A stretch of DNA of 64,000 nt from Raja brachyura (taxonomy: Eukaryota), in contig OY740805.1 of assembly GCA_963514005.1 (NCBI GenBank), forward strand, positions 22,878,001-22,942,000, given 5' to 3'. Under the pieces are notes generated by a model, which was not told the DNA's origin, ran no database searches, and was given only the letters and a program-made list of their open reading frames with translations. Of the stretch, positions 1,106-62,985 are shown in pieces. A program made the position numbers and the translations under genes. Numbering within the stretch: position 1 is the first letter of the stretch; every line of letters starts with the position of its first letter.

Positions 1106-1223
1106 CCGTTGTTCCACCGTCACCCTTTTGTGTGGAATCGTGACAGAAGCCTCCTCGTGGCGATCCCCGGAACCGACGACACGATGCACTCTGTGACGTG
1201 TCGGGCGACCAATTCTGTCAACA

Positions 1224-1488
1224 TCAGTCTTCCCGTGGATTTTGAAGCAACAGCAACAAAGAGAAGCAGGAGAAAGCACTGATTGGCTCTAGCCCAAGTG
1301 GGAGGAGAGTTCTCAGTGAGTCAGAGGGGGAGAGCAGTTAAAAAGGAGAGGCAAAGCACAGGCAGACTTCACTCAGTCTTCCCGTGGATTTTGAAGCAAC
1401 AGCAACAAAGAGAAGCAGGAGAAAGCACTGATTGGCTCTAGCCCAAGTGGGAGGAGAGTTCTCAGTGAGTCAGAGGGGGAAAGCAGTT
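1224..1488 (+). repeat. Tandem duplication (149-bp period) in CR1 5' UTR
   Basis: tcagtcttcccgtggattttgaagc...gagtcagaggggg starts at both 1224 and 1373, ~115 bp nearly identical. Confidence 0.9.
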
Positions 1489-1673
1489 CCTCAAAACTGA
1501 GGAATTTGGTTTGTAAATTAGGCAATTGAACAGTCAATATAAGCAAGGCAGCTCTTGGGGAGCGGCCTTGTGAGGGAAGTGCCCTGTGAGTAAAGTGTGA
1601 GTCTTTGGCTCGAGAGTCTTCGGCGAGGAGGCTGCGCAAAATACTGGATAGGGCGAGACTGAGGCAAAAGAAG

Positions 1674-2600
1674 ATGTCAAGCAAGCTGATGCAGTGTGAT
1701 GCTTGCAGTATGTGGGAGGTCAAGGACACTGCTGGTGCCTCTGGATGCTACAAATGTGAGAAGTGCATCCAGGTACAGCTCCTGAAGGACCGTGTTGGGG
1801 AACTGGAGAAACAAGTGGATGACCTCAGGTTCATTCGAGAAACTGAGTCGTTTCTCGACAAGTCCTTCAGTGAGATTGTTACACCCAAGGCACTAGAAGA
1901 GAGAAGGTGGGTGACGGTGAGAAAGGGAGGAAAACATGGGATGCAAAGGTCCCCGGGTGCTGTACCTCTTGTGAACAGGTTCACCCACGTGGAAGCTGCC
2001 GGGACAGAAGACGGTATCCCACTGAGCGGCGGACTGGCTTGCCAAACAAAAAGGGCTGATGAGCCAAACCCACAGAGGCCAAAGTCGGGCAACGCCATTG
2101 TAGTTGGAGACTCCATTGTGAGAGGTACGGACAGGGGTTTTTGCGGCAACAGACGGGATTCCAGGATGGTGTGCTGCCTTCCTGGTGCCAGGATCCAGGA
2201 TGTTACGGACAGAGTGCAGACAATCCTCAAGGGCGAAGGTGACCAGCCGGAAGTGGTCGTGCATGTTGGCACAAATGATGTTGGAAAGAAGGAGATTAAT
2301 TTTTTGCAGCGGGACTTCAGAGAGCTCGGAAAAATGCTGAAAAGCAGGACTTCCAGGGTTGTTATCTCCGGTTTGCTTCCAGTTCCTCGTGCTGGCGAGA
2401 GCAGGAACAGGGAGATATGGGACCTGAATGTGTGGCTGAGGAACTGGTGCAGGGGGCAGGGATTTAGATTCTTAGATCACTGGGATTTTTTTTATAGTAA
2501 GGGGGAACTGTACAAAAGGGACGGATTGCATCTTAACAGGTGGGGGACCAGCATTCTGGCCGGCAGGTTTGCCACTGCTACACGGATGGTTTTAAACTGA
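1674..2600 (+). CDS. CR1 ORF1 (CxxC-CxxC Zn finger, coiled coil, SGNH/GDSL esterase)
   Basis: MSSKLMQCDAC..CEKC, LEKQVDDL, VVGDS, HVGTND, DGLH; first ATG at 1674 within ORF 1605-2600. Confidence 0.92.
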   Translation: MSSKLMQCDACSMWEVKDTAGASGCYKCEKCIQVQLLKDRVGELEKQVDDLRFIRETESFLDKSFSEIVTPKALEERRWVTVRKGGKHGMQRSPGAVPLVNRFTHVEAAGTEDGIPLSGGLACQTKRADEPNPQRPKSGNAIVVGDSIVRGTDRGFCGNRRDSRMVCCLPGARIQDVTDRVQTILKGEGDQPEVVVHVGTNDVGKKEINFLQRDFRELGKMLKSRTSRVVISGLLPVPRAGESRNREIWDLNVWLRNWCRGQGFRFLDHWDFFYSKGELYKRDGLHLNRWGTSILAGRFATATRMVLN

Positions 2601-5600
2601 ATAAGGGGGGTGGGGTATCAAATGGGATAGTCGAGGACGGAGTTAGAGGGAAAGAGAGTAAAGCGATGGTTAATGACCCCAGAATTAACGGGGAAGAAAG
2701 CTCACAAAGGGATAGGAGAGTATGTCCAAGTGTAATAGGGATCGATGTGAAAGGGGCCACTTGTCAACATAATTGTATAAGGAGTAAGAGTGTTGTAAAA
2801 ACAAGCCTGAAGGCTTTGTGTCTCAATGCGAGGAGCATTCGTAATAAGGTGGATGAGTTGAAGGTGCAGATAGCGATTAATGACTATGCTATAGTTGGAA
2901 TCACGGAGACTTGGCTCCAGGATGACCAAGGCTGGGAGCTGAACATCCAGGGATATTCAATATTCAGGAGGGATAGACGAAAAGGAAAAGGAGGTGGGGT
3001 AGCGTTGCTGGTGAGAGAGGAGATTAATGCAATAGAAAGGAAGGACATTAGCGTGGAGGATGTGGAATCGATATGGGTAGAGCTGCGAAACTCTAAGGGG
3101 CAGAAAACGCTAGTGGGAACTGTGTACAGGCCACCTAACAGTAGTATTGGAGTTGGGGATGGCATCAAACAGGAAATTAGAAATGCGTGCAACAAGGGTA
3201 ACACGGTTATAATGGGTGACTTCAATCTGCATGTAGATTGGGTGAATCAAATTGGCAGGGGTGCTGAGGAAGAGGATTTCCTGGAATGTATGCGGGATAG
3301 TTTTCTCAACCAACATGTGGAGGAACCAACGAGAGAGCAGGCTATTCTAGACTGGGTATTGAGTAATGAGGAAGGGTTAGTTAGCAGTCTTGTTGTGCGT
3401 GGCCCCTTGGGCAAGAGTGACCATAATATGGTTGAGTTCTTCATTAGGATGGAGAGTGACAAAATTAAGTCAGAAACAAGGGTTCTGAACTTGAACAAAG
3501 GTAACTTTGAAGGTATGAGATGTGAATTGGCCAAGATAGACTGGCAGGTGATTCTTAAAGGGTTGACAGTGGATGTGCAATGGAAGGTATTTAAAGACTG
3601 CATGGATGAAGTACAAAAGTTGTTCATACCAGTTTGGCAAAAGAATAAATCGGGGAAGGTGGTGCATCCATGGATAACAAGGGAAATCAGGGATAGTATA
3701 AAAACAAAAGATGAGGCATACAAATTTGCCAGAAAAAGCAGCCTACCGGAGGACTGGGAGAAATTCAGAATCCAGCAGAGGAGGACAAAGGGCTTAATTA
3801 GGAAAGGGAAAATAGATTATGAAAGGAAACTGGCAGGGAACATAAAAACTGACTGCAAAAGTTTTTATAGATATGTAAAGAGAAAGAGACTAGTTAAAAC
3901 AAATGTTGGTCCCTTGCAGTCAGAAACAGGTGAATTGATCATGGGGAACAAGGACATGGCAGACCAATTGAATAACTACTTTGGTTCTGTCTTCACTAAG
4001 GAAGACATAAATAATCTGCTGGAAATAGCAGTGGAACGGGGGTCAAATAAGATGGAGGAACTGAGTGAAATCCAGGTTAGCCGGGAGGTGGTGTTGGGTA
4101 AATTGAACGGATTGAAGGCCGATAAATCCCCAGGGCCAGATAGTCTGCATCCCAGAGTACTCAAGGAGGTAGCCACAGAAATAGTGGATGCATTAGTGAT
4201 AATTTTTCAAAATTCCTTAGATTCTGGAGTAGTTCCTGAGGATTGGAGGGTAGCTAATGTAACCCCACTTTTTAAAAAAGGAGGGAGAGAGAAAGCGGGG
4301 AATTACAGACCAGTTAGTCTAACATCGGTAGTGGGGAAACTGCTGGAGTCAGTTATTAAAGATGGGATAGCAGCGCATTTGGAAAGTGGTGAAATCATTG
4401 GACAAAGTCAGCATGGATTTACGAAAGGTAAATCATGTCTGACAAATCTGATAGAATTTTTCGAGGATGTAACTAGTAGAGTGGATAAGGGAGAACCAGT
4501 GGATGTGTTATATCTAGACTTTCAGAAGGCTTTCGACAAGGTCCCGCATAAGAGATTAGCATACAAACTTAAAGCACACGGTATTGGGGGTTCAGTATTG
4601 ATGTGGATAGAGAACTGGCTAGCAGACAGGAGGCAAAGGGTAGGAGTAAACGGGTCCTTTTCAGAATGGCAGGCAGTGACTAGTGGGGTGCCGCAAGGCT
4701 CAGTGCTGGGACCCCAGCTATTTACAATATATATTAATGATTTGGACGAGGGAATTCAATGCAACATCTCCAAATTTGCAGATGATACCAAGCTGGGGGG
4801 TATAGTTAGGTGTGAGGAGGATGCTTGGAGGCTGCAGGGTGATTTGGATAGGCTGAGTGAATGGGCAGATGCATGGCAGATGCAGTACAATGTGGATAAA
4901 TGTGAGGTTATCCACTTTGGTGGCAAAAACATGAGGGTAGACTATTATCTGAATGGTGGCAGATTAGGTAAGGGGGAGATGCAACGAGACCTGGGTGTCA
5001 TGGTACACCAGTCATTGAAAGTAGGCATGCAGGTGCAGCAGGCAGTGAAGAAAGCAAATGGTATGTTAGCATTCATAGCGAAAGGATTTGAGTATAGGAG
5101 CAGGGAGGTTCTACTGCAGTTGTACAGGGTTTTGGTGAGACCACACCTGGAGTACTGCGTACAGTTTTGGTCTCCAAATCTGAGGAAAGACATCCTTGCC
5201 ATAGAGGGGGTACAGAGAAGATTCACCAGACTGATTCCTGGGATGTCAGGACTTTCATATGAGGAAAGATTGGATAGACTCGGTTTGTACTCGATGGAAT
5301 TTAGAAGATTGAGGGGGGATCTTATAGAAACCTACAAAATTCTTAAGGGGTTGGACAAGCTAGATGCTGGAAGATTGTTCCCGATGTTGGGGGAGTCCAG
5401 AACAAGGGGTCACAGTCTAAGGATAAGGGGGAATTCCTTTAGGACCGAAATGAGGAAAACATTCTTTACACAGAGAGTGGTGAGTCTCTGGAATTCTCTG
5501 CCACAGAAGGTAGTTGAGGCCAGTTCATTGGCTATATTTAAGAGGGCGTTAGATGTGGCACTTGTGGCTAAAGGGATCAGGGGGTATGGAGAGAAGGCAG

Positions 5601-5614
5601 GTACGGGATACTGA
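2540..5614 (+). CDS. CR1 ORF2 (apurinic endonuclease + reverse transcriptase)
   Basis: 1024-aa open frame with NARS, ETW, GDFN, SDH (APE) and PGPD, DFQKAFD, PQGSVLGP, FADD (RT); true start codon uncertain. Confidence 0.95.
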   Translation: MGDQHSGRQVCHCYTDGFKLNKGGGVSNGIVEDGVRGKESKAMVNDPRINGEESSQRDRRVCPSVIGIDVKGATCQHNCIRSKSVVKTSLKALCLNARSIRNKVDELKVQIAINDYAIVGITETWLQDDQGWELNIQGYSIFRRDRRKGKGGGVALLVREEINAIERKDISVEDVESIWVELRNSKGQKTLVGTVYRPPNSSIGVGDGIKQEIRNACNKGNTVIMGDFNLHVDWVNQIGRGAEEEDFLECMRDSFLNQHVEEPTREQAILDWVLSNEEGLVSSLVVRGPLGKSDHNMVEFFIRMESDKIKSETRVLNLNKGNFEGMRCELAKIDWQVILKGLTVDVQWKVFKDCMDEVQKLFIPVWQKNKSGKVVHPWITREIRDSIKTKDEAYKFARKSSLPEDWEKFRIQQRRTKGLIRKGKIDYERKLAGNIKTDCKSFYRYVKRKRLVKTNVGPLQSETGELIMGNKDMADQLNNYFGSVFTKEDINNLLEIAVERGSNKMEELSEIQVSREVVLGKLNGLKADKSPGPDSLHPRVLKEVATEIVDALVIIFQNSLDSGVVPEDWRVANVTPLFKKGGREKAGNYRPVSLTSVVGKLLESVIKDGIAAHLESGEIIGQSQHGFTKGKSCLTNLIEFFEDVTSRVDKGEPVDVLYLDFQKAFDKVPHKRLAYKLKAHGIGGSVLMWIENWLADRRQRVGVNGSFSEWQAVTSGVPQGSVLGPQLFTIYINDLDEGIQCNISKFADDTKLGGIVRCEEDAWRLQGDLDRLSEWADAWQMQYNVDKCEVIHFGGKNMRVDYYLNGGRLGKGEMQRDLGVMVHQSLKVGMQVQQAVKKANGMLAFIAKGFEYRSREVLLQLYRVLVRPHLEYCVQFWSPNLRKDILAIEGVQRRFTRLIPGMSGLSYEERLDRLGLYSMEFRRLRGDLIETYKILKGLDKLDAGRLFPMLGESRTRGHSLRIRGNSFRTEMRKTFFTQRVVSLWNSLPQKVVEASSLAIFKRALDVALVAKGIRGYGEKAGTGY

Positions 5615-6079
5615 GTTGGATGATCAGCCATGATCACATTGAATGGCGGTGCAGGCTCGAAGGGCCGAATGGCCTACTCCTGCACCTATTTTCTATGTTT
5701 CTATGTTTCTATGTAACATGTTGGATGACGACAGTAGCCAACAGCGAACTACATGTCGTCTGACACACAAGTGAATGAACCCTTGTTAGACTAATCAACT
5801 GCAGGTTACGACATAAATATGATGTGATGCAACTAATTGACAGTGCAGCATAGAGAGTGCAGCACAGAAACAAGCCCTTTGACCCACTAAGTCCATGCTA
5901 ACCTTTTTGGGACCTGATCTCTTTTTATCTTCCTGATATTTCCAATACCCACCCCTAGATTTTACTATTTAATGACACATGGAGTAATAAATGGTGGCCT
6001 GTGAACCAAATAACTGTCGTAACTCACCTTTGTGGGTGGAATATCTGAATATCATATCATTTCCAAATGTTGATCAGTA

Positions 6080-8635: not shown

Positions 8636-9205
8636 GAGAGGAGCTGCTCTGCTGGCGGGGAGGATTTAATGAACTTTTTGGACGTTGGGGAGGATTGAAA
8701 GCATTCCGACTTTGCGTTCAGAGCTTTGTCGGACTGCAGAGACTTTCTTTGTTCAAGGATTCCTCTAATTGGTGAGGATTGTCTGTGTGTTTCTGGAAGG
8801 TCGTAGGAGCGGCAGTGGCTGGCGGAAGACCAAGATTCACTTGAACTGGTGGGAGCTGAGTCTGGAGCGGTGTTTGTGGTCAGTAACATCGGAAAGCTCC
8901 CTCCCACACCGACTTGCCCGGTCCAGGTGTGCTGGGTAAGAACGGCAACAGTGTCTTGGATTTCGTTGAAGCCGGGGAGGCGACGGAGACCTGGGGAAGA
9001 AGCCTCCGGAAGCTCCATTTTTGACGGCGGGAGGATTGACACAGACATTCCTACCTTATCAGGAGGAGACTGCTTCTGTTGCTTTGCCAAGAAAGCCTTC
9101 ACAAGATACTGAACTGCTGCAAGAGAGTGGAGGTGCAGCAACAGCAGAAAGACTGCTTTGATTTTAAAAGTACTGATACTTTGTGTGTTGTGCCACGCCC
9201 TAAAG

Positions 9206-39786: not shown

Positions 39787-39979
39787 TGTAGATGTTTAGT
39801 GCATGTCCCTTTAATTGTAGGTTGTGTAGCCACTCCCCTTTCACCAAGTATATTACTGTCTCTCCATCCCTGGTACCTCCTCTAGTAAAACGTGCAGACC
39901 ATGTACAACTAGGGCATCGATATATGTGATTAATAAAGACTCGGTAAAGGAACACTGTGTACGTGTATACTTCTTTACA
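39787..39979 (+). repeat. 5' LTR
   Basis: tgtagatg...ctttaca, contains AATAAA. Confidence 0.95.
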
Positions 39980-40063
39980 TGGTGTCGGTCGTTTCGAATT
40001 GCGCGCCTCCTGTTTATCGGGTTTATTTTTTTTTTTGCCCCAGTTACCCTTCCCTGCCTGGTT

Positions 40064-43000
40064 ATGGCTTCCTCCTGCCGCAAGCCTGAGTCCCTTGTCT
40101 TTGACGACGACATCGCTCACCGGTGGAACGTGTTCCGCCGGGATTTTCGGCATTATGTGGCTATCGTGCACCCGGGAGTTTCCTCTGCCATTAAAGCGTC
40201 GCTGCTATTGAATCTAGCCGGCTCCGAGGCTCTGGAGCGCTCTGAATCGTTTGAGTACGGGCCGAATGAGGACCCTGAGGACCTTGACTGTCTACTGGGG
40301 AAGTTCAACGAGATGTGCGATGTGCCCACGAACTCTATTCTGGAGCGTTTTAAGTTTTTTGGACGTCGTCAGAAACCCGGTGAGTCTGTCGGCAACTTCT
40401 ACGCTGACCTACGGCACCTGGCTAGGCGATGCCAGCTGAATGACGCTACCCCAGAGACCCTGACCCGCGATGTCTTGGTGATTGGTCTACGAAATGAAAA
40501 GCTGCGGTCGGAGCTCCTGTGTAAGGCAGACTTGACTCTCCAGGCTGCCCTGCATGCTGCAAAGATGTCTGAGGCTGTTATCTCTGCTGCACCACCCCCT
40601 GATCATGAGGTTCGGGCAGCTACCGTCGCAACCCGCCGTCCTGCTCAGCAAACTCGCCGTGGGGCCAGCTATGGTTCAAGTTCCAAGCTGGAGAAGCGCT
40701 GCCCGAACTGTAACTTTGTGACTCATCGTTTCAACGTGTGCCCTGCGGTGGGAAAGATTTGTAACTTCTGCAACAAGCCTAACCACTTCTCGTCAGCATG
40801 CAGAGCTAGAAAAAATCCTGCCCAGCAACAGCGCAGGCACTCTAATTACATGGTACGGGATGGTACTGCGTCTGGTTCTTATCACCCTCCTGACAACCTC
40901 CCACTGTCTGATCCGGACTCTTCTCAGAGTGAGCTCAGCGTGTTTTCAGTTAGGAAGGCACCTGCTCGAATAACAGACCCTACTGTGCAAGTTACTGTCA
41001 ATGGTTCTACGTTCTCTGCCAAGGTCGATACTGGGGCCGCCACGAACGTTATGTCTACTAGCCTTTTCAAGAAGATAAGGAATAATGAGCGAGTCACCGT
41101 TGAGCGCTCTGTCCTTCGTGCTTATGGGGGAGGGTTGCTTTTCCCTGTGGGGAAGGCTACCCTGAACTGTGAAGTGCTAGAGACCGTTCGGCCCCTCTCC
41201 TTCTTCCTGGTTAACGAAAAATGTGTTACACTGCTCGGTGTTCGGGCATGCCAAGACCTCGGATTGGTCAATTTTCACCGGGAGATCCGTTTAGTTCAGC
41301 AACCTTTGGACCCGTTAGCCGAGTACCCCGATCGGTTTGACAATGCGCTGGGGATGCTCCCCTGCAGTTACGAGATCTCTCTAAATCCTGACGTGGATCC
41401 AGTTATACGCCCTCCACACCGGGTCTCCTTTGCGATGAAGGATAGGGTCGAGTCCACCCTTCGGGACATGGTGGCTACAGACATTCTGAAAGAGGTGAGC
41501 GAGCCCACTCAGTGGGTCTCCACCATGGTGGTTGCTGCCAAGAAGGACAAGAGTGAGCTACGGATCTGCATCAACCCCAAAGATTTGAACCTGGCTATCA
41601 AGCGCCCGCACTATCCCATGCGTACTGTCGAAGATGTTGCTGCACAGGTTGGCCCTGCCACTGTGTTTTCGGTGCTGGATGCTAAGAGCTCGTTCTGGCA
41701 GATACCGCTAGATGAACAATCGTCCTACCTGACGACCTTTGCCACTCCCTTTGGGAGGTTCCGATTCCTGCGCATGCCGTTCGGGATCAGCTCCGCCAGT
41801 GAAGTTTTCCAGAGGACGATGGAACAGCTGTTTGCGGGACTCCCGTGCGCTATCATTGTAGATGACATCTTGGTGTATGGTAAAGATGTGGAACAGCACG
41901 ACCACAACCTCCGACTAGTTTTGGATCGAGCTCGGGAGGTAAATCTGAAGCTCAACCCCAGTAAATGCCGGTTCCGTGTCCCGGAGGTCACCTATGTGGG
42001 ACACGTCTTCACAGCGTCCGGGCTGAAGCCCGACCCACAGAAGACCGCTGCTATCTCGGAGATGCCTGCTCCTGTGGATGTGCCGAGCCTCCAGCGTTTC
42101 CTTGGCATGGCTAATTATTTGGGAAAATTCATCCCCGATCTGAGCGAGTTGAGTGCCCCTTTAAGAGACTTGGTGGAGAAAGACACTGCATGGTCCTGGT
42201 TCCCGCAACACCAGGCTGCTTTCGATATGCTGCGTTCAAAGCTTGTCTGCACTCCGACGCTGCAATATTTCGATTTGAACCGTCCTATTGTCCTCACGTG
42301 CGATGCTTCAAAGTTCGGGCTGGGTGCTGCTTGTTTGCAAGTTCATGATGGGGTCCAGTTACCCGTGTCCTTCGCGTCCCGCACGATGACTCCAGCTGAG
42401 CAGTGCTATGCCCAGATCGAAAAGGAACTGCTGGCTGTTGTGTTTGCATGTTCAAAGTTTAAGGACTATATCCTGGGCACCGAATTCTCTATTGAGACCG
42501 ACCACCAGCCTCTGGTCACCATCCTCGGCAAGCCGATTCACGCTGCCTCCTCCAGGCTGCAGCGGATGATGCTGCAGCTGCAGCGTTTTACCTTCTCCGT
42601 AGTGTACCGTAGAGGCAAGGACATGTTTATTGCTGACACGCTGACTCGGGCTCCTCTGGCTTCGACCACCCGTCACCCTTACGAGGCTTCAGGTATGATT
42701 GTCCTGAACGTCAACTTTGTTCCTTCAAAACAACTACAGTCCTTAGTTAAACACACTGCTGCTGACGCCTCGCTCCAACAGCTAGCTGCGGTCATTCAAA
42801 GGGGTTGGCCCGAGCGACGTTCTTCCCTGCCCGCCGCGGCAGTGCCCTACTTCCTGGTCCGTGACGAGCTGGTGCTACGAGATGGAGTTATCGTTAAGGG
42901 TCACAAGGTTGTGGTACCTGAGGCTCTTCGCCAACAGTATTTCGACACCGCGCATCGGGGTCATCCTGGCGCCGAGGCCACTCTCTCTATCGCCCAAAGC

Positions 43001-44082
43001 CAGTTTTATTGGCCTGATATGGCTGTGTATTTTCGGGACCGGGTGTCATCTTGCCCTACCTGCAACAGTCTCGCCCCGCAGCAGCAGCGTTTGCCCCTTC
43101 TGCAGCAGCCCGCACCGGACCTGCCATGGTCGGCGCTGGCAACGGACATTTTTGAGTGGCACGGCAAGCACTTCTTGGTGCTTGTCGACTCTTACTCCAA
43201 CTGGTATGAGGTCGACCAACGGCAGCCAATTTACCAGTGCGGAGTTCAAGGACTTTGCTGACCGCTGGAACTTTCGGCATTACACTAGTAGCCCTGAGTA
43301 CCCTCAGAGCAATGGCCTGGCCGAGCGTGCTGTTCGCAGCGCTAAGGACTTGTTGAATCGCTGCCGCGCATCGAAGTCTGACATTTACCTCGCCCTCCTC
43401 AACCTGCGAAACATTTCCCGTGACAGTGTTCTGGGATCCCCGGCGCAGCGCCTCATGTCCCGGGTTTACTCGACCTCCCATTCCGGTGGCCCAGCAGACT
43501 CTTACCCCAGCTGTTGTAAAACCTGCCGTGGTCCGTGAGCGTATTGCTACCAAACAGTCCATTCAGAAGCGATCCCACGACAGGTCTTGCCGTGCCCTGC
43601 CTCCTCTGTCTCCTGGTCAGGTTGTCCGCATGCGTTCCACCTCCGGTCACCCTGGCCTTGCGGTTGTTGTTGGGACGGCTGGTTCACCTCGCTCCTATCT
43701 GGTGAACCTCGATGGTACTGTTTACCGTCGGTCCAGGCGGCACCTCCGCCTGGTGAACGAGCCTCCTCCTCCTCCTCCTGCTGACCCCCATGCTCCCCCT
43801 CTGTCCGCTCTCCCGCCTGTAGCGGTCACTAAACCTGTGCCTGCTCGCCCTGTCCCGGTTCTTCTCCCTGTGCCTGTTCCCGTGCCTCCAGCCGTCTCTT
43901 CCCCATCGCCAGGTCGCTCGCCTCCAATCCCTTTGTCACCACGCAAGTCCCCACATTTTAGTCCTCCTGTCGTGGGGTCTCCCCCGGTGCCCGTTCCTTT
44001 GGGGGGAGAGGGTGTGAGCGGGATTCGTACCCGCTCGGGGCGGATTGTAAGGGCGCCTGACCGTTATGGCGATTATATTTGA
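40064..44082 (+). pseudogene. Gypsy gag-pol (Zn knuckles, protease, RT, RNase H, integrase)
   Basis: Open from ATG 40064 through CxxC knuckles, VDTGA, IVDD, CDAS/ETDH and HHCC; deletion-frameshift at ~43217 and a second frameshift at ~43468 in integrase; ends RTRSGRIVRAPDRYGDYI. Confidence 0.92.
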
Positions 44083-45461: not shown

Positions 45462-46396
45462 TTAAAACACGCTACGTGATCTCTGGTCCGAGGTTGGAAC
45501 TAATTTATTCAAGAAAGTAAACGGATATTTCAGCGTATTCGTCAATGATTCTCTGAACTTTGCCTGAGCCACCGCATAAATAAATGTGTTTGTGCACGAA
45601 CTCAGGCGCTGCAGCATATACCCAGTGTGCTCCATAATGGCGAAAGGATCGTTGTAATCCGTGAGCATGAACTCAACGCCTGCAAATTGTGTGCATATGT
45701 AATGTACAAATGTTACCATCCATAGCAGTATGAAACAGCTTGAGATGGAGAGCAGTAAAATGATCGATTTTCTGCGGTTTACAATCTCCGGATCAGTGCA
45801 ATCCTCGCTTTTCCCGTCCCCCCGGAGTCCCCTCCTTATCCGACTAGCCTGTAAAATATGTCTGGTGGTCAGGGCATTAAGCAGCACAATCAAAAGGAAA
45901 GGTACAGACGGTGTTAAGGTAATGTCGAAGAAGAAGTATGCAACCCATATTGGTAAACTGGAGAGACTTGACTTCACTTTGCAGAACCATGGCACGTTGT
46001 CAATAATCAGCAGATGCTCGTTTTCAAAATAAATAGGGATATTCTGCACAAAGCTTAATCCAAACACAATCACTATTACAATAGCGGCAGTTCTTTCGGT
46101 GCAGTATTTTGCTCTCAGCTTCTGACAACAAATGGCGATGTATCGATCAAATGTGAAGGCAACGGTTAACCAGACCGAACAATCAATGGCTGCGAACACC
46201 AGGGCAATTATGAGGCTGCAGACGGGAGTATAATGCAAGAAGGAAAGCGGAAAATGCATGTCATTAATCTCGTATAATACTACATCAAATATTATCACCA
46301 GTAAGTCTGCAACAGCCATGGCGACAATGTAACGTGTGATGCATTTGGAAAGACCACAGTTCCCACGAGATAGAATCACAATCGCCATGAGATTAC
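45462..46396 (-). CDS. GPR139-like class A GPCR, exon 2
   Basis: ttcttgcag|GT acceptor; GNLMAIVIL, MAVADLL, FDRYIAIC, FILLW, CTNTFIY; open frame to TAA. Confidence 0.9.
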
Positions 46397-46908
46397 CTGC
46401 AAGAATAGAAATATGCGCAGTCACAGAGAATAACCGCTTTGGACAAAATGTTACGTGGAGATTAACTCCAAATATTTCATAAATAAAACACAACGCGTTG
46501 GAGTAACTCGGCAGATCAGGCGGCATCTGTGGAAGGAATGGATTTGCGACATTACCGGTCAGGAGCCTTCTTCAGACTTAAGAAGCGGCCCGACCGGTAA
46601 CGTTGCCTATGGAGTCAAGATTCAAGATTCAAGAGTGTTTTATTGTCGTATGTCCCTGTTAGAGCAATGAAATTGTTACTTGCAGCAGCAGAACTGAATA
46701 TGTAAACATAGGACATTCTAAACAATATAATTAACGAGAGAGACAAAGGTTAGTGTGTGTGTACATACACATATCCACCAATATATCGTCCGAAGAAGGT
46801 CTGGACCCGAAACGTCACCCATTCCTTCTCTCCATGATACCTGCCTCGCTCAATTACTCCAGCCTTTTTTGTCTATCTTCGTTTTAAGCCAGCACCTGCG
46901 AATCCTTC

Positions 46909-51642: not shown

Positions 51643-53718
51643 GAGCACTGTTGAAGTTGAAGTAAGCTCTCCTCCACTAACCCCTCCATGGACTCTGATA
51701 TAACAGCCTAATGTTGGTGGCCAGTGGCTGGTGATAGCGTTAGCAATATAATGTTGTCTGCCGATGAACACTGTGTTTAGCTGTTTCTGTTGTATTTGTT
51801 CTATAATTTTCTTATTCAACTTTTGACTTCGATACAATGATGCCTGCTTTACTACTATCTGCCGTAAAAAGCGTCACAATGGACGTAAAACGTCGTAACA
51901 TTAAGAGTTGAGTTTTCTTTTTCCTTTCCTATACGAAAAGTAAAGGGTTGTTTCAATGGTAAAAGATTGGTCCCTATAAACAATTGGTTATATTCAATTA
52001 CCAATTATTTGAATATTGAAATTTGATAAATTGACAATTGAAGGCAAATGAAGTTTAATCTAGATTTTCTCTCTTTTTATTTTTATTTTTATTAACCATA
52101 TGCGATAGAATTTTGCTATTTTGGGCTTCATAATGCCCAATTAATTTAATTTAATTTAAACATAAATGGTCCAGGATATCATACTTTGATCTATTTGCAT
52201 AAATATGAGCTATGCAGACTGTGTGTATGCTCGCTTTTTTTTTTTTTCTTTCTCTCTCTCTCTCTCAATGACGCAGCCTGATCTTGTGTGCTTTGTCTGT
52301 CCTGTCTTCTATGTGTGTGTGTTTGTGTAAATCTGTGCATGTAGCTCTCTTGTCCCCTTCCTTATGCTATTCCCCTGACCCCAACATTATCTACACCCAA
52401 TTGATCCACAATTGATACAGCTAAAGGCCTAAAAATCATCCATTTGAACATTAGGAGCCTTCTTCCAAAGATTGATTTAATTAGAGTTTGGATTGCACAG
52501 AATAAACCTGACATAATAACATTTTCAGAAACATGGTTACGTAGTGAAATTTGTGACAATGATATTCATATTGATAATTTTGCATTATATAGAGCAGATA
52601 GGCCTACGAGAGCTGGAGGTGTGGCTTGTTATGTGTCAACTCGCTTTATATCTGAATCTGCCATTCCTAAAGTAACCTCATCTCTCTTTGAAAGCCTTTT
52701 CATTAGGTTAAAGCTTCATGAGAATAAACATCTAATCATCGGCACTATCTATCGATCCCCCCCCCCCCTGTTCATCCTAACTCAACAAAGTCCCTAATTT
52801 CCACTCTCACCTCTATTGAACACCCATGTGAATTAGTGCTTCTTGATGACTTCAATAAAAACTGGCTCGATTGCTCCTCTCCTAACGACAAAAACTTGCT
52901 TTAAAGTATAAACCTGACCCAGTTAATGAACGAACCTAACAGAGTTCATGGCAATTCTACATCACTATTAGATTGGATTATTGTTACCAATCCTGACCGA
53001 ATCTTAACATCTGGCGTTTTGTCAGATTGCTTTAGCGATCATTCTGCTATCTTCTGTGTGTGGAAGATTAAACCTTCCCATCTTCCTCCTAAACTTATTC
53101 GTGTCCGACAATTTAGAAAATTGAATTATGATAATTATATGCATGACCCGATTGCAATAAACTGGGACAGGTTTCAACTTATACCAACTGTTGAGGATGC
53201 CTGGAACTATTTGTACACTGAAGTCACAAGAGTTATCGATAAGCATGTCCCCTGGAGAGAAATAAAAGTCAAGGGATAACATTTACCATGGATTAGCGCT
53301 GATTTGATCAACCTTTTTAATGAGCGAGATAAAGTCTGGAAGACTTTCAGGGAAATTCAGGGCTGATTGGGAAAAATATAGGTCCTTAAGGAATCAGTGT
53401 GCGACAAGAACACGAAATGCTAAGTCAAGTCATTTTAAAAACATCTTTCTGTAGACATGCATAATCCAAAAAAGTTCTGGAAAAGACTAAATAATGTTCT
53501 TAATAAATCAAATCAAAATATCAGCACTCAGATTCGGGTCAATAATGATATAATTTAGGACCCTGCTGTTACATCCAATGCTTTCAACCATCACTTCTCC
53601 ACTGTATGTAGCTCTACTGTAACCATATAACCATATAACCATATAACCATATAACAATTACAGCACGGAAACAGGCCATCTCGGCCCTTCAAGTCCGTGC
53701 CGAACAACTTTTTTTCCC

Positions 53719-56640
53719 TTAGTCCCACCTGCCTGCACTCATACCATAACCCTCCATACCCTTCTCATCCATATGCCTATCCAATTTATTTTTAAATGAT
53801 ACCAACGAACCTGCCGCCACCACTTCCACTGGAAGCTCATTCCACACCGCTACCACCCTCTGAGTAAAGAAGTTCCCCCTCATGTTACCCCTAAACCTCT
53901 GCCCCTTAATTCTAAAGTCATGTCCTCGTGTTTGAATCTTCCCTATTCTCAAAGGGAAAAGCTTGTCCACATTAACTCTGTCTATCCCTCTCATCATTTT
54001 AAAGACCTCTATCAAGTCCCCCCTTAACCTTCTGCGCTCCAGAGAATAAAGACCTAACTTATTTAACCTATCTCTGTAACTTAGCTGTTGAAACCCAGGC
54101 AACATTCTAGTAAATCTCCTCTGTACCCTCTCTATTTTGTTGACATCCTTCCTATAATTGGGCGACCAAAATTGTACACCATACTCCAGATTTGGTCTCA
54201 CCAACGCCTTGTACAATTTTAACATTACATCCCAGCTTCTATACTCAATGCTCTGATTTATAAAGGCTAGCATACCAAAAGCTTTCTTTACCACCCTATC
54301 TATATGAGATTCCACCTTCGAGGAACTATGCACGGTTATTCCCAGATCCCTCTGTTCAACTGTATTCTTCAATTCCCTACCGTTTACCATGTACGTCCTA
54401 TTTTGATTTGTCCTGCCAAGGTGTAGCACCTCACATTTATCAGCATTAAACTCCATCTGCCATCTTTCAGCCCATTTTTCCAACTGGCCTAAATCACTCT
54501 GTAGACTTTGGAAATCCTCTTCATTATCCACAACACCCCCTATCTTGGTATCATCTGCATACTTACTAATCCAATTTACCACCCCTTCATCCAGATCATT
54601 GATGTACATGACAAACAACAAAGGACCCAACACAGATCCCTGAGGCACCCCACTAGTCACCTGCCTCCAACCCGACAAACAGCCATCCACCATTACTCTC
54701 TGGCTTCTCCCATTCAGCCACTGTTGAATCCATCTTGCTATTCCTGCATTTATACCCAACAGTTGAACCTTCTTAACCAACCTTCCATGAGGAACCTTGT
54801 CAAAGGCCTTACTGAAGTCCATATAGACAACATCCACAGCTTTACCCTCGTCAATTTCCCTAGTAACCTCTTCAAAAAATTCAAGAAGATTAGTCAAACA
54901 TGACCTTCCAGGCATAAATCCATGTTGACTGTTCCTGATTAGACCCTCTTTATACAGATACTTATATATATTATCTCTAAGTATCTTTTCCATTAATTTG
55001 CCCACCACTGAAGTCAAACTAACCGGTCTATAATTGCTAGGTTTACTTTTAGAACCCTTTTTAAACAATGGAACAACATGCGCAGTACGCCAATCCTCGG
55101 AGACTATTCCCGTATCTAATGACATTTGAAATATTTCTGTCATAGCCCCGGCTATTTCTACACTAACTTCCCTCAATGTCCTAGGGAATATCCTGTCAGG
55201 ACCTGGAGACTTATCCACTTTTATATTTTTCAAAAGTGCCAGTACTTATTTTACTTTGAAACTCATAGTATCCATAGCTACTCTACTAGTTTCCCTTACC
55301 GCACATAATTCAATATCCTTCTCCTTGGTGAATACCGAAGAAAAGAAATTGTTCAATATCTCCCCCATCTCTTTTGGCTCCGCAGATAGCTGTCCACTCG
55401 GTCTCTCCAATGGACCAATTTTATCCCTTGTTATCCTTTTGCTATTAATATAGCTGTAGAAACCCTTTGGATTTACTTTCACCTTACTTGCCAAAGCAAC
55501 CTCATATCTTCTTTTAGCTTTTCTAATTTCTTTCTTAAGATTCTTTTTACATTCCTTATACTCCTCAAGCACCTCATTTACTTCATGCTGCTTATAATTA
55601 TTGTAGATCTCCCTCTTTTTCGGAACAAGATGTCCAATTTCCCTTGAAAACCAGGGCTCTTTCCAATTTTTACTGGTTCCTTTCAACCGAACAGGAACAT
55701 AAAGATTTTGTACTCTTAAACTTTCCCCTTTAAATGTCCCCCATTTCTCCTCTACATCTTTCCCATAAAACAAAATGTCCCAGTTCACTCCTTTTAAATC
55801 ATCTCGCATCTCGTTAAAGTTAGCCTTTCTCCAATCAAAAATCTCAACCCTAGGCCCAGTTCTGTCCTTCTCCATAATTATATTGAAACTAATGGTATTG
55901 TGATCACTGGACCCGAAGTGCTCCCCTACGCATACCTCCGCCACCTGTCCCGTCTCATTTCCTAACAGGAGGTCCAGCACTGCCCCGCCTCTAGTAGGCA
56001 CCTCTATGTATTGCTGCAAAAAACTATCCTGCACACATTTTACAAACTCCAAACCATCCAGCCCATTTACAGAATGTGTTTCCCAGTCTATGTGTGGAAA
56101 GTTGAAATCTCCCACAATCGCTACCTTGTGCTTACTACTAATATCTGCTATCTCGTTACATATTTGCTCTTCCAATTCTCGTTCCCCATTTGGCGGTCTA
56201 TAATATACCCCTATAAGTGTTGCTACACCTTTCCCACTTCTAAGTTCCACCCAAATAGCCTCCCTAGATGAGCCCTCCAATCTATCCTGCCAAAGCACTG
56301 CTGTAATATCTTCCCTGACGAGCAATGCAACACCTCCACCTCTTGCCCCTCCAATTCTATCACACCTGAAGCAACGAAATCCTGGAATATTTAGTTTCCA
56401 ATCACAGCCCTCCTGCAACCATGTTTCACTGATCGCCACAACATCATACTTCCAGGTGTCTATCCAGACTCTAAGCTCATCCACCTTTTTGACAATGCTC
56501 CTAGCATTAAAATATGCACATGTAAGAAACCCCCCATCTCTTGTTCTCTGTTTATTTCCTTTTTTTTCTTTCTCCTCTTGTGTCCGAGTGCTTCCCTTTT
56601 CTGCTTCCTGCCTCCCATTCTGTCTACTAGCTTTTGCTAT
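53719..56640 (-). pseudogene. CR1 ORF2 (APE+RT) with one in-frame TAA at 55246-55248
   Basis: FNARS, SETW, GDFN, SDH; SPGPD, DFSKAFD, PQGSVLGP, YADD; ORFs 55246-56829 and 53719-55233 share a frame. Confidence 0.9.
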
Positions 56641-57546
56641 TTGCATCCCCGCCAGGATATTGGTCCCCCTCGGGTTCAAGTGCAACCCATCCTTTCTGTA
56701 CAGGTCCCACCTACCCCAAAAGAAGTCCCAATGATCCAGAAACTTGAATCCCTGCCTTCTGCACCAGTCTTTCAGCCAAGCATTTATCCTCCACCTTGCT
56801 CCATTTCTACTCTCACTGTCACGTGGCACAGGCAGTAATCCTGAGATTGTTACCTATTTGGTCCTTTTCCTCAACTCTCCTCCCAAGTCCTTAAATCCTC
56901 CCTTCAGGACCTCTTCCCTTTTTTACCTATGTCATTGATACCTATATGTACCACGACCTCAGGCTCCTCTCCCTCTGATTTGAGGATATCTTGGACACGT
57001 TTAGACACGTCCAAGACCTTGGCACCAGGGAGGCAGACCACCATCCTGGTCTCCCGACTGCGTCCACAGAATCGCCTATCCGACCCCCTAACAATAGAGT
57101 CCCCAATTACTATTGCCCTCCTCTTTTTTTCCCTACCTTTCGGAGCAACAGGGCCGGTCTCTGTGCTGAAGGCCCGTCCGCTGTCGCTACCCCCGGGTAG
57201 GCTGTCACCCCCATCCGTACTCAAACAGGAGTACTTATTTGCCAGGTGTACTGACATTGGAGTACTCACTCGTTCATGCCTCTGCCCCTTGCCCTTCCTT
57301 AGCGTGACCCACATGTCTCTCTCCTGTGGTTTTTGGAGTGACCACCTCCCTATAACTCTCCTCTATCACCTTTTCACTCTCCCTGACCAGGCAGAGGTCA
57401 TCGAGCTGCTGCTCCAGGATCCTAATACGGTCCCTTAGGAGCCCCATCTCTCTGCACCTGATGCAGATGTGGACGTCAAGAGGGCCATCCGACACCATGA
57501 CCTCCCACATCTGACATGCAGTACAGTACACTGCTCCGGCTGACAT
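56641..57546 (-). pseudogene. CR1 ORF1 (Zn finger, coiled coil, SGNH esterase), frameshifted
   Basis: MSAGAVYCTACQMWEV..CIRC, IGDS, HIGIND, DGLH across three ORF pieces. Confidence 0.85.
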
Positions 57547-57677
57547 TCTCTCGCCTTACCCTGGATCGCTATCAGTATAATATAATGGAAACTCCTGTGA
57601 GAAATCAGCAGGTATCTGACTCAAACAGCTGCTCCCTCTTGGCCCCTAACCTACACCTTTATTATACAAACCAAAAA

Positions 57678-57823
57678 CACTGTACCTTTACTAACCCCCT
57701 GTACCTTTACTAACCCACTGTACCTTTACTAACCCCCTGTACCTTTACTAACCCACTGTACCTTTACTAACCCACTGTACCTTTACTAACCCCCTGTACC
57801 TTTACTAACCCACTGTACCTTTA
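57678..57823. repeat. 19-bp tandem repeat (~7.5 copies) in CR1 5' UTR
   Basis: tgtacctttactaaccc(c/a)c units at 57681, 57700, 57719, 57738, 57757, 57776, 57795 and 57814. Confidence 0.92.
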
Positions 57824-57960
57824 ACCAGAAAGCAGAACTACTAACCAGAGGCTCCACCCAATCAGCTGCTTCCTCTAGTCTGCTTCCCCCAATCAGTGTC
57901 TTCCACCAGAAACCTCCCTATTCAGAATGGAATGTTCCGGATTTATGTAAAAACAAGCCC

Positions 57961-59275
57961 CTGACCCTCCTCCACTCGCACCAACGGTCACGGGCATCTG
58001 CCTGAACAAGCCCCGCGCTGGATTTATCTACTCACCGCCCCTGACCCTCCTCCACCCGCTCCAACGGTCCCGGGCCTCTGCCTGAACAAGCCCCGCGCTG
58101 GATTTATCTACTCACCGCCCCTCACCCTCCTCCACTCGCTCCAACGGTCCCGGGCCTCTGCCTGAACAAGCCCCGCGCTGGGTTTATGTACTCACCGCTC
58201 CTGACCCTCCTCCACTCGCACCAACGGTCCCGGGCCTCTGCCTGAACAAGCCCCGCGCTGGGTTTATGTACTCACCGCTCCTGACCCTCCTCCAATCGCA
58301 CCAACGGTCCCGGGCCTCTGCCTGAACCAGCCCCGCGCTGGGTTTATGTACTCACCGCTCCTGAACCTCCTCCACTCGCTCCAACGGTCCCGGGCCTCTG
58401 CCTGAACAAGCCCCGCGCTGGGTTTATGTACTCACCGCTCCTGACCCTCCTCCACTCGCACCAACGGTCACGGGCCTCTGCCTGAACAAGCCCCGCGCTG
58501 GATTTATCTACTCACCGCCCCTGACCCTCCTCCACTCGCTCCAACGGTCCCGGGCCTCTGCCTGAACAAGCCCCGCGCTGGATTTATCTACTCACCGCCC
58601 CTGACCCTCCTCCACTCGCTCCAACGGTCCCGGGCCTCTGCCTGAACAAGCCCCGCGCTGGGTTTATGTACTCACCGCTCCTGACCCTCCTCCACTCGCT
58701 CCAACGGTCCCGGGCCTCTGCCTGAACAAGCCCCGCGCTGGGTTTATGTACTCACCGCTCCTGACCCTCCTCCACTCGCACCAACGGTCCCGGGCCTCTG
58801 CCTGAACCAGCCCCGCGCTGGGTTTATGTACTCACCGCTCCTGACCCTCCTCCACTCGCTCCAACGGTCCCGGGCCTCTGCCTGAACAAGCCCCGCGCTG
58901 GGTTTATGTACTCACCGCTCCTGACCCTCCTCCACTCGCACCAACGGTCACGGGCCTCTGCCTGAACAAGCCCCGCGCTGGATTTATCTACTCACCGCCC
59001 CTGAGCCTCCTCCACTCGCTCCAACGGTCCCGGGCCTCTGCCTGAACAAGCCCCGCGCTGGATTTATCTACTCACCGCCCCTGACCCTCCTCCACTCGCT
59101 CCAACGGTCCCGGGCCTCTGCCTGAACAAGCCCCGCGCTGGGTTTATGTACTCACCGCTCCTGACCCTCCTCCACTCGCACCAACGGCCCCGGGCCTCTG
59201 CCTGAACAAGCCCCGCGCTGGGTTTATGTACTCACCGCTCCTGACCCTCCTCCACTCGCACCAACGGTCCCGGGC
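57961..59275. repeat. 80-bp tandem array (16.4 copies) with 6-monomer (480-bp) higher-order structure
   Basis: Units every 80 bp from 57961; diagnostic variants recur at units 1/7/13, 2/8/14 and 5/11. Confidence 0.95.
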
Positions 59276-60036
59276 CTGTATTTGACTCCTTTATTATATG
59301 TGACTTTCCAGCTAGCTCTACACGTAGAAGCTTTTTTTCTTTTCAAAAAATAGAACCTGTTGACGTTCAACATGCTATTAATGAATTAAAGGATGAATGT
59401 GGATCTGGACCAGTTGGTATTGAGACTAAATTAATTAAATTAGGAGCTAATATTCTAATGTACCCACTATGCGACCTGTTTAATTTGTCCTTCTCAACTT
59501 GTACCCTCCCTTCCGCATGGAAGTGTGCCAACGATTAACTAGAAAGTTAATAGGTCCCTTGAAATGTAAAATGATAATTTGGAGATAATATGTCCCTTTA
59601 TGTGAGAGCGACCTTAAGGTGGATAAGTCCCTGGGACTGACCAAGCGTATCCTAGCTGCCTATCCATTAAGCTGCCTTCACCGGGTTGGTTTACGATAGC
59701 ATATTCCCTCTCCATTTAGGTTCACCTTTTAGGCTAACTTTTCCCATGGTTTTGTGATTTGTGGAGATTCTCCTTCTTTTGAGGAAAATATTAAACAATC
59801 ACTAACTCAGTGACAAGTTCACAGAGACGGTTTCCCAAGGAGTTGGCAGGCAGTACTGAGATCGTGAATATTGTGCGGGAGGTCGGGTAGTTTGGGAGCA
59901 ACGGCAACACAGAGCTGGTGCAGGAGGAACATTTTCCCAGTTGTGAATAACTGGTAAATTGGACTTTTCTTTCGGAAATGTCACCCACCATTTCGTGTCC
60001 GCATTTGTACCGCCAAAATATAGTGTAACTGCTCAC

Positions 60037-60270
60037 CTTCAGAAATATCACACTGTCTTTATGATCCATCTGTTCCTGTAACTTTAATAGTTCCTCCTGA
60101 ATGGAATTGATATTCCCTTGAATCTCTTGAAGATTTTTCTCCATTGTATTCAGAATTAACTGCTCTTCTTCCCGGATATCTGCCAGTTCTCGCAGGTCTT
60201 TCTCACCGAGAATCTGGTGAATTTCAGCATACTGGGATGTGGTCTTGGACTGAATGTTGTGTGACTATTC
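60037..60270 (-). pseudogene. TRIM (RBCC-B30.2 type) coiled-coil exon with premature stop
   Basis: ttaacag|GAA acceptor, AAG|gtgagc donor, 234 bp phase 0-0; E*SHNIQSKTTSQYAEIHQILGEK..IREEEQLILNTMEKNLQEIQ..DSVIFLK. Confidence 0.75.
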
Positions 60271-60974
60271 CTGTTAAATGAAGGTGAAGATCATTATTTA
60301 ATGTAGTTGTACAGTAATTTCCTCGCGGCGTGGGAGGTGATGGTTAGCCAATCAACCGTGCGTCACGGAACACAAAAAAATATGCCTTTTGGCGGATCAT
60401 GCCCATGCTGGCCACTGTACTTATCTATACCAATCCAATTTCCCAGAATTTAGTCCGTATTTTTCATTGCCTCGGCAATTCAGGCGCGTTGAAATCTGAA
60501 AATAATTTACAACTTCTCCTTCCCTTTCTCCCAAGTCCAATTTCCTGCAGCCTATTCGATTTCACGTACCTATAAAAATCCCACCCTTTCGCCCACCACC
60601 TACATTCACTGGGATAATTTACAGCCGCCGATTCACCATCCAACAAGCGTACTGCAGGATGTGGACACAATCAGATGCGAGAGAACGAGCGACCGACCGA
60701 CATGGACAGCAACCGAGATCAGGATCGATTTGGGTCATTATGGATGAGCTGGGCTGAAGGACCTATTTCATATAAGGCCACAACAGCGCTACTTCCACTC
60801 ACAAAGTAGCAGTCAGCCAACGTCTTTATAGGATATTGGCCCTTCGGCCCAATTTATCCATGCCGACCATATTGTCTATCTACGCTAGTTCCCCCAGCCG
60901 GAATTTTGCCGTTATCCTTGTACACTTTCCAAATGTTTTCCATAAATATTCTTATCGTACCTAACTCAACTACC

Positions 60975-62985
60975 TGGAGGGGGACCGGCGTCCTGGCATG
61001 CAGATTTGCTGGGGCTACACGTATGGGTTTAAACTTAATAGTGTGGGGGAGGGATTGACAAATTGGGAGTATAAAGATGGAGGTGAAGGGAAAGTGAGTA
61101 CAGGAAAAGTTGCAAAAGACTCCCGAATTAATTGGAAGTAAGGTTCGGGAAGAGATAAGAGGGTAAGGTCAGTGTCAATTGCGAGCGGTGCGCGAGGGAA
61201 GGTTAATACCAAAGTCAAAGTGCTGCATATAAATGCGCGAATTATAAGAAATAAAATGGACGAGCTTGAGACGCAGTTAGAAATTGGCAAGTATGATGTC
61301 GTGGGTATTACTTAGACATGGCTGCAAGAGGGCCAGGGTTGGGAACTGAATATTCAAGGTTAAACCTTCTATCGAAAAGACAGGCAGGTGCGCAGAGGGG
61401 GGTGGGGTAGCTCTGTTGTTGAGGAATGAAATTCAATCCCTTGCAGGGGTGACATTGAACCAGGAGATGTGGAGTCAGTATGGATAGAACTAAGGAATTG
61501 TAAGGGTAAAAATACCCTAATGGGACTTATCTGCACCCCCACCCCCCCAAACAGTAGGCTGCATATAGGGTGCATGATGAATCATGAGTTACAATTGGCA
61601 TGTAGTAAAGGTAAATCTACGGTTGTTATGGGAGAATTTGAACATGCAGGTCGACTGGGAAATCCAGGTTGGTACTGCACCCGAAGAAAGGGAGTTTGTG
61701 GAGTTCCTCCGCGATGGATTCTTAGAGCACCTGGTATTGAAGCCTATCAGGGAGAAGGCAATTCTGGATTTAGTGTTATGTAGTTATCCGGATTTGATAA
61801 AGGACTTGAGGTTAAGGAGCCATTAGGAGGCGGTGACCATAACATGGTGAGGTATAATCTACAATTGGAGAGGGTGAAGGGTAGATTGGAGGTGTCAGTG
61901 TTTTAGTTGAATAAAGGGGAAGACGGAGCCATGAGGGAGCAGCTGGCCAAAGTTGACTGGAAAGATACCCAAGCAGGGATGACAGTGGTACAACAATGGC
62001 AAGTATTTCTGGGAATAATGTAGATGGTGCAAGATCAGAGGAAGAATGATTTCAAGGGCCGTAAGGGGCGACTGTTTAGTAGTGACCAGGGGATCTGCGG
62101 TGACGGAAAAACAAAAGGAAATCCACTTAAGGCAGGACATTGTGTTGGGTAGACTGATGGGACTGAAGGCTGATAAATCCCGGGCCCGATGGTCTGCATC
62201 CCAGGGTTCTTAAGGAAGTTGCTCTAGAAATCGTGGACTCATTGGTGATATTTGGTAGTTGAGTACAGGATCAAAGAGGTCCTTCTAAAGTTCTACATGG
62301 CCCTAGTGAGACGGCGCCTGGAGTATTCTGTGAAGTTTTGATCCCCTAATTTGAGGAAGGACAGTCTTGCTATTGAGCTTGCATCGCAGGTTTACAAGGT
62401 TAAATCCCGTGATGGGTGGACAGTCATATGCTGAGAGAATAGAGCGGCTGGGCTTGTATACTCTGGAATTTAGAAGGATGAGAGGAGATCTTATTGAAAC
62501 ATATAAGATTATTAAAGGTTTGGACACGGTAGAGGCAGGAAACATGTTCCCTATATTGGGGGAGTCCAGAAACAGGGGCCACTGTTTAAAAATAAGGGGA
62601 AAGCCATTTAGAACGGAGATGAGGAAACGCTTTTTAATACACAGTTGTGAGTCTGTGGAATTATTTGCCTGAGAGGGCGGTGGAGGCCGTTTTTTTGCAT
62701 ACTTTCAAGAGAGAGCTTGAAATTTGTGTTACAGCGTATTGTATATTGTACGTTATTTTTAAGTTTATCGCCGCTGGCAAATTAATTTCACTGCACCTTC
62801 GGGTGCATGTGACAAATAAAATTGGCTTTGATTTTGACTTTGAGATCGGGTTCTTAAAGATAGCGGTAATTGTGAGAAGGCAGGAAGACTGTACTTATTG
62901 GGGTGATCAGCCATGATCACATTGAATGGCGGTGTTGGCTCGAAGGGTCGATTGGCCTACTCCTGCGTCTATTGTCTATTGTCTA
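60975..62985 (+). mobile_element. Degraded, multiply deleted CR1 (ORF1 end, APE, RT pieces, 3' tail)
   Basis: NARIIRNKMDEL, ESVWIELRN, GLYTLEFRRMRGDLIETYK, tail ctattgtctattgtcta. Confidence 0.85.

Follow-up and report, generated by a model that had tools for sequence, protein, structure and literature searches.

A mostly phased 80-bp tandem 5' end in a young skate CR1 family, with units proposed as RNA polymerase II promoters

Does an 80-bp tandem array lying next to a CR1 retrotransposon belong to that element, and what might a row of such units do at its 5' end? The array in question lies in a stretch of 64,000 nucleotides from the skate Raja brachyura (assembly GCA_963514005.1, contig OY740805.1, positions 22,878,001 to 22,942,000 of the forward strand), which we call the window. 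An earlier note, made from the letters of the window, had described it as an 80-bp satellite with a 480-bp higher-order repeat that forms the 5' end of the CR1. We found that the array is indeed the 5' end of the CR1, whereas the 480-bp repeat is an accident of the window copy. Our main reading, to which we give a probability of roughly two in three (0.68), is that a young CR1 family has this array as its tandem 5' end and that most copies of the family begin in phase, likely since each unit contains an RNA polymerase II promoter.

The boundaries of the insertion decide whether the array is part of the element (Table 1). The pentamer CTGTA flanks the whole element and occurs only once in all five uninterrupted copies of the host LINE that were taken from the genome, the left and right flanks of which match those of the window, and the reading frame of the host LINE runs on across the insertion site. 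The array is therefore inside the insertion, as had been proposed from the duplicated CTGTA and from the host frame resuming after it. The duplication is partly junction microhomology, because its CT also matches the monomer and its TA also matches the CR1 tail. Contigs listed from four runs included none spanning the window junction. Read on the minus strand, the element has the order array, distal tether, 19-bp VNTR, proximal tether, ORF1, ORF2 and 8-bp tail, and the window copy begins at position 3 of the CAGAGG word. The repeats of the array, at C25:22,935,960-22,937,277 in genome coordinates, have 96% matches and zero indels according to TRF, and the monomer has 65% GC with 6 CpG per unit.

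Table 1. Coordinates of the features in the window and of two long arrays elsewhere in the genome
Feature	Coordinates	Strand	Remark
Copy of a second CR1 family with its own 149-bp 5' repeat	1220..5714 (start approximate)	+	
Left copy of the target-site duplication CTGTA	53617..53621	+	single in 5/5 empty host sites
3' tail of the CR1, 8-bp repeat x4.5	53620..53655	-	same on sister copies
ORF2, APE endonuclease and reverse transcriptase	53719..56853	-	PF03372, PF14529, PF00078
ORF1, Cys-rich N-terminus and SGNH esterase domain	56854..57546	-	ATG at 57546
Proximal tether (5' UTR beside ORF1)	57547..57677	-	
19-bp VNTR x7.7 within the tether	57678..57823	-	
Distal tether, 136 bases	57824..57959	-	continues into the array on sister copies
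Array of 16.5 x 80-bp monomers, six-unit higher-order repeat	57960..59277	-	
Right copy of the target-site duplication CTGTA	59276..59280	+	
Older interrupted LINE frame	left part ends 53621, resumes 59281..59531	+	
C10 array, 241 units, 19.3 kb	C10:45,896,856-45,916,191		before whole tether and body
C21 array, about 670 units, 58.3 kb	C21:47,417,299-47,475,611		joined to VNTR and whole body

Several features of the body point to its family. The 3' end consists of short tandem repeats rather than poly(A), and the 8-bp tail, which is seen on sister copies too, is typical of CR1. The nearest named proteins by identity come from a skate and rays (87%, 82% and 74%), in keeping with a skate as host, and bird and turtle reverse transcriptases are among the hits at 42-51%; these proteins are presumably CR1, although none is labelled so. 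The esterase domain of ORF1 matches PDB entry 4c1b (E 1.1e-5), and PF13472 matches the C-terminal piece of ORF1 below the curated cut-off. An ORF1 of the esterase type is a CR1 feature according to section 15 of PMC13343379. The window copy itself is dead because it has two frameshifts in ORF1 (near 57330 and near 56920), a deletion of 52-53 bases near 56650 that runs the end of ORF1 into the ORF2 frame, all three relative to ten of ten sisters, and a single stop in ORF2 at 55246-55248.

The CR1 family is young and large. Nearest copies are 0.2-2.2% apart over 75 bodies (four short bodies dropped), and an open frame of at least 950 codons is present in 8 of 64 copies. A first look with two 5' probes gave 1054 and 1352 candidates, which are not copy numbers. 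The tether measures 262 to 5016 bases among the copies, and about 12.6 kb in one. The 19-bp VNTR in the tether expands as well, with tethers of 5 kb and about 12.6 kb (L211 with L087, C9:703.7-716.4 kb; L085), and many of its units have the word GGTGAGTA in common with the 80-bp unit, a word that we take to be a match to the 5' splice-site consensus. An intron in the 5' UTR, with the donor-like word GGTGAGT in each unit and an acceptor-like word before ORF1, was considered and rejected; the predicted spliced join had 0 exact matches, and the RNA reads of a related organism contained no such joint. A structured RNA was also rejected (fold z -0.42), and no Rfam match was found in 53500-59400.

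The rest of the window contains other elements. A near-intact LINE of another clade, presumably L1/Tx1-like, lies at 9113-15064 with endonuclease, reverse transcriptase and zf-RVT domains; a 51-bp repeat at 9825-9996 was tried as a CR1 5' end and rejected, lying as it does inside the upstream open frame of this LINE. Frames of the LTR-retrotransposon type with protease, reverse transcriptase, RNase H and integrase occupy 39830-44082, and an intronless frame of a rhodopsin-family GPCR (PF00001, E 3e-21) is found on the minus strand at 45462-46571. About 0.5 kb beyond the array, 59791-60264 on the minus strand has a weak TRIM coiled-coil match below cut-off, and a decayed CR1-like copy with many breaks follows on the plus strand at about 60960-62900.

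The association between monomer and CR1 could be followed across the genome from either end. Among the copies anchored in ORF1, 30 of 39 have the array, 29 of them within 10 kb and the 30th behind the 12.6-kb tether, and the remaining nine end inside the tether. A monomer word has 1245 exact matches genome-wide; the 100 matches listed form 23 loci over 92 Mb of C1, and all 23 adjoin a CR1. These loci are our own grouping and comprise five previously identified CR1 copies and 18 fetched loci, 17 of which join the distal tether and one a body fragment. Both counts bear out the claim that the array is the CR1 5' end, and the genome-wide search for the monomer, which had been named as a check on that claim, came out in its favour among the matches listed. 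Ordinary copies contain 0.5 to 35.5 units (85 fetched copies), and contigs or reads of other organisms likewise place the unit beside the tether. We also observed two unusual arrangements. At one locus (L031, C38:8,717,459-8,718,579), an orphan 14-unit array is followed by unrelated sequence, with 7.4 kb fetched behind it that contain no CR1 body, and the array sits in a degenerate 10-bp G-rich tandem repeat. At another (L084, C612), an array of 11.7 units runs in the opposite direction to the whole copy beside it and borders on a body without its first kilobase, indicating an inversion or deletion.

The higher-order repeat calls for a different answer. Within the window array, the recurrence of variants every six monomers is real and follows the unit assignments first given: cggtca together with gatttatcta marks units 1/7/13, gatttatcta units 2/8/14, and gaaccag units 5/11. 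Units six apart differ on average by 0.9, versus 2.9-4.5 at the other lags from 1 to 11, and the period was reached by none of 20,000 shuffles of unit order. The comparison of the higher-order phase among copies, which had also been proposed, found it not to be common to the family. The order of variants differs in every long copy, and gaaccag is found twice in the window array and once elsewhere in the genome. A clear period exists in three of the 16 dispersed arrays with at least nine whole units, being 6 in the window, 10 in L153 and 8 in L154; the lags of 10 and 8, in two of the 15 other long dispersed arrays, were reached by 5 and 17 of 2000 shuffles. No clear period was found in the other 13 of the 16, and the weakest candidate, reached by 86 of 2000 shuffles, was left out. 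On these grounds, we rejected the higher-order repeat as a family feature.

How such repeats arise may be read from the divergence of the units. Units are more alike within loci than between them (2.5 vs 4.3 differences per unit, 55 loci). In the window array, six of the seven private changes are in one repeat block only, and the array has diverged by 0.62% and the body by 0.64%, so the six-unit duplication took place early in the life of the copy or in its parent. Steady growth of the array with age was rejected, as unit number and copy age have a Spearman correlation of 0.03 (58 copies); growth is therefore episodic, with no steady regrowth after insertion. Three small contigs (L035, C1617; L037, C120; L042, C1272) have in common a rearranged older copy, 92% identical to the window body, with arrays of 10-28 units and periods of seven or nine units, probably a duplicated segment.

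What function the units might have is suggested by where the copies begin. When units are numbered from the C of CAGAGG, 62 of 86 copies start at positions 0-5 of the 80, and 50 of 86 at positions 1-3 (binomial p 3.5e-50). This set includes the window copy, one segmental-duplicate pair and samples obtained with three kinds of anchor; when only the copies anchored in ORF1 are counted, 23 of 29 starts are phased. AGAGG is preceded by G in 14 of 23 copies, compared with a frequency of 0.19 in the flanks (p 1.5e-5, one monomer-like junction being left out of the count), and by the templated C in only four of the 23. In L1 and SVA, an untemplated 5' G is ascribed to the cap (PMC3287187). From the sequence, the phased end and the extra G together suggest a putative transcription start site. 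The G excess could come partly from microhomology at the junctions, because the automatic calls of target duplications on sister copies were mostly ambiguous and most copies gave no clear duplication. Of 19 copies with their start at position 2, 15 have a T in front of it, in many cases as TAT-GAGG. This sequence is similar to the tail repeat of the element itself and may point to targets chosen by microhomology.

A candidate for the signal that sets this start is found in every unit. CATAAA or GATAAA is located there, 29 bases upstream of the A in the CAGAGG of the following unit, and about -29 is the usual distance of a TATA box. The word is imperfect, with nine changes over positions 53-57 in 442 units, and is conserved no better than many other positions of the unit. 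The earlier note had thought of a renewable internal promoter. Since the TATA-like word is upstream of the common start, in the preceding unit, the putative promoter is probably not internal in the usual sense. No RNA data carrying the element were listed. In a related organism, raw poly(A) reads of both strands, mostly 90-99% alike, extend over ORF1 and, in thin coverage, over the tether and first units; at this low depth over the units, read starts do not accumulate where the start is predicted.

The second CR1 family of the window presents a comparable arrangement. Its ORF2 has about 58% protein identity, in the best block, to that of the array-bearing CR1, and its 149-bp unit is unrelated to the 80-bp unit. 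The window copy starts with 1.7 of these units, which TRF had missed, and the statement that both full-length CR1s of the window have tandem 5' ends is thus correct. The unit is present in 0.45-6.7 copies per locus, and 19 of 21 starts fall within about 5 bases, in a sample for which 20 of the 40 listed copies were fetched (L161-L180). Some 30-35 bases upstream of the start lies TTAAAAA, with a CCAAT-type word further up. The 149-bp unit (window 1220-1480) also contains the word TGAGTCA.

If our main reading is right, the 80-bp units would be RNA polymerase II promoters, each initiating transcription within the unit that follows it, with CATAAA or GATAAA at -29 acting as the TATA box. With the promoter upstream, the outermost part-unit would be unable to fire itself, and a daughter would therefore lack one or more of the units of its parent. 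Every round of copying would cost one unit or more, copies with half a unit would be dead ends, and occasional exchange at the DNA level would rebuild the row. Unequal exchange might have made the six-unit repeat of the window copy, either in the parent or when the copy was still new, and might occasionally carry an array on to a satellite, as in those of 19 and 58 kb. We consider the chances about even that these CR1s depend on disposable upstream TATA promoters and that the duplications which refill them also make higher-order satellites of tens of kb. The unit numbers of the ORF1-anchored set peak at 2.5-3.5, with 12 of 29 copies between 2.1 and 3.5 and four of 29 at 0.5.

Each unit might instead be a self-contained internal promoter, as in mouse L1, with its signals downstream of the start, for example in the GGAGGAGGG tract; the outermost unit could then fire itself, and nothing need be lost per round. 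We regard this as unlikely. The phasing and the extra G are explained equally well by such a promoter, and the ATAAA word has no special conservation, but a TATA-like word is found at about -30 in two unrelated monomer families of the same genome. The ends of mouse L1 cluster inside the monomer and match CAGE peaks (PMC6454616), which would suit an internal promoter here too; yet a promoter of this kind would need no tandem copies for its survival, and skate copies of 0.5-1.5 units arise commonly (6 of 29), both of which speak against it.

The array had also been suspected of seeding satellites around the genome, and two concrete cases, the 19.3-kb array on C10 and the 58.3-kb array on C21, now give substance to this idea. 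Both are attached to CR1 bodies and are not independent, and the window array is 1.3 kb inside a LINE. The head of the C10 array is phased and briefly duplicated; no target duplication is evident there, and the array has no excess of divergence over its body (0.45% vs 0.69%). The C21 array has a period of 33-34 units and contains, ten times over, a single 478-bp 3' piece that belongs to the second CR1 family and is 99.6% identical to the window copy of that family. All ten have 0-2 differences in 465 bases, four are at an exact spacing of 3206 bp, and the four inspected have the same junctions. One recent nested insertion has been multiplied in place, and amplification at the DNA level therefore took place in at least one array. 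The C21 array has neither the distal tether nor a phased head nor a target duplication, and there is a deletion at its join. Its private changes amount to 2.9% in the units against 1.1% in the body (2.7 times), evenly along the array, an excess that could be due to faster mutation in an expanding array or to an older array that was joined by a CR1.

The latter possibility leads to the idea that the satellite came first, so that an older satellite, such as that on C21, gave the CR1 its unit, or a CR1 joined an existing array. We consider this improbable for the family. It would account for the evenly spread excess of private changes at C21 and for a join with a deletion and no target duplication, but the main variants of C21 are found in dispersed CR1 copies that form an older branch and have whole tethers. 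Of seven fetched loci, five are of the C21 type throughout or mostly and two have one such unit. At C10, the array has not diverged further than its body and has kept its phased head, and no long array without a CR1 was found among those examined. The satellite can have come first at C21 alone, leaving the main reading untouched.

Also improbable is that the phased ends are stall or template-switch points of the reverse transcriptase in a long repeat RNA, in which case the array would be no more than a passenger minisatellite and the tether, or sequence outside, would contain the promoter. In favour of this are a G-rich sense strand, 4 of 86 ends at positions 43-46, immediately 3' of the G tract, and short duplicated heads (L062, L107, C10) that look like template jumping at the 5' junction, but there is no stable fold (z -0.42), the main end is 5' of the G tract, stalling in each unit predicts most copies at 0.5 units instead of the 2.5-3.5 seen, and the untemplated G is left unexplained.

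The common view is that LINEs retain their promoter owing to its internal position (PMC2881922, PMC1636488). A promoter that lies upstream of the start it sets would not survive copying unless it were stacked and refilled, and the refilling of monomers in mouse L1 is called unclear in PMC6454616. In the skate family there are hundreds of young copies phased to the single base, block duplications specific to one copy, and two arrays of satellite size that are still attached to a datable body, so that one set of loci bears both on the renewal of monomer promoters and on the speed at which higher-order satellites originate and mutate. If the proposal is true, this datable series, from 0.5 to about 670 units, would show the birth of a satellite from a retrotransposon promoter. 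What the present analysis adds is the extra G as a probable sign of a cap, a higher-order structure that is specific to single copies, and two satellites attached to their elements. Within the literature covered, with subscription papers, Repbase and Dfam outside its scope, we found none on CR1 5' monomer promoters or on satellites derived from them; a paper by Haas et al. (2001) is said to concern CR1 5' UTRs.

The closest known system is the mouse L1Md A, Gf and Tf families, which likewise have tandem GC- and CpG-rich units and a tether before ORF1 (PMC6454616, PMC9022269, PMC5381506); there, too, the unit number varies and the copies tend to begin at a single site of the unit. Unequal crossing-over has been proposed as the means of extension in mouse L1, and a 50-monomer array has been reported (same three papers). 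The skate element might be mouse-like in its working, but is not a member of that group because its body is CR1-like with an esterase ORF1. Its units are 80 bp rather than about 200, its start is much sharper and has a TATA-like word upstream, a term the main text of PMC9022269 does not contain as 'TATA', and its arrays reach about 240 and about 670 units with higher-order structure. Promoter activity has been demonstrated for mouse L1Md, whereas the skate CR1 unit is a putative promoter from its letters.

Within the CR1 group, tandem subunits near the 5' UTR of vertebrate elements are described by Stuart et al. (2026, PMC13343379). There they are described only for some elements without ORF1, as one to five subunits of 100-500 bp, and no function is given, the words 'promoter', 'tandem' and 'satellite' being absent from the main text; the skate CR1 differs from these in having ORF1 and 80-bp units, 0.5 to about 670 per array. 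HeT-A of Drosophila is similar in that an upstream repeat unit starts transcription and the unit behind is copied (PMC1636488). There the unit is a whole telomeric element, while here it is proposed to be an 80-bp unit within a dispersed LINE. Satellites derived from transposons include chicken HinfI from CR1, those of cetaceans from L1 and PisTR-A from Ogre (PMC9659126); as in the skate, the unit of the long array comes from a LINE or LTR element. The pieces amplified in the cases given there are from 3' UTRs or ORF2, whereas in the skate CR1 they are putative 5' promoters, and the arrays are still attached to the elements that carry them.
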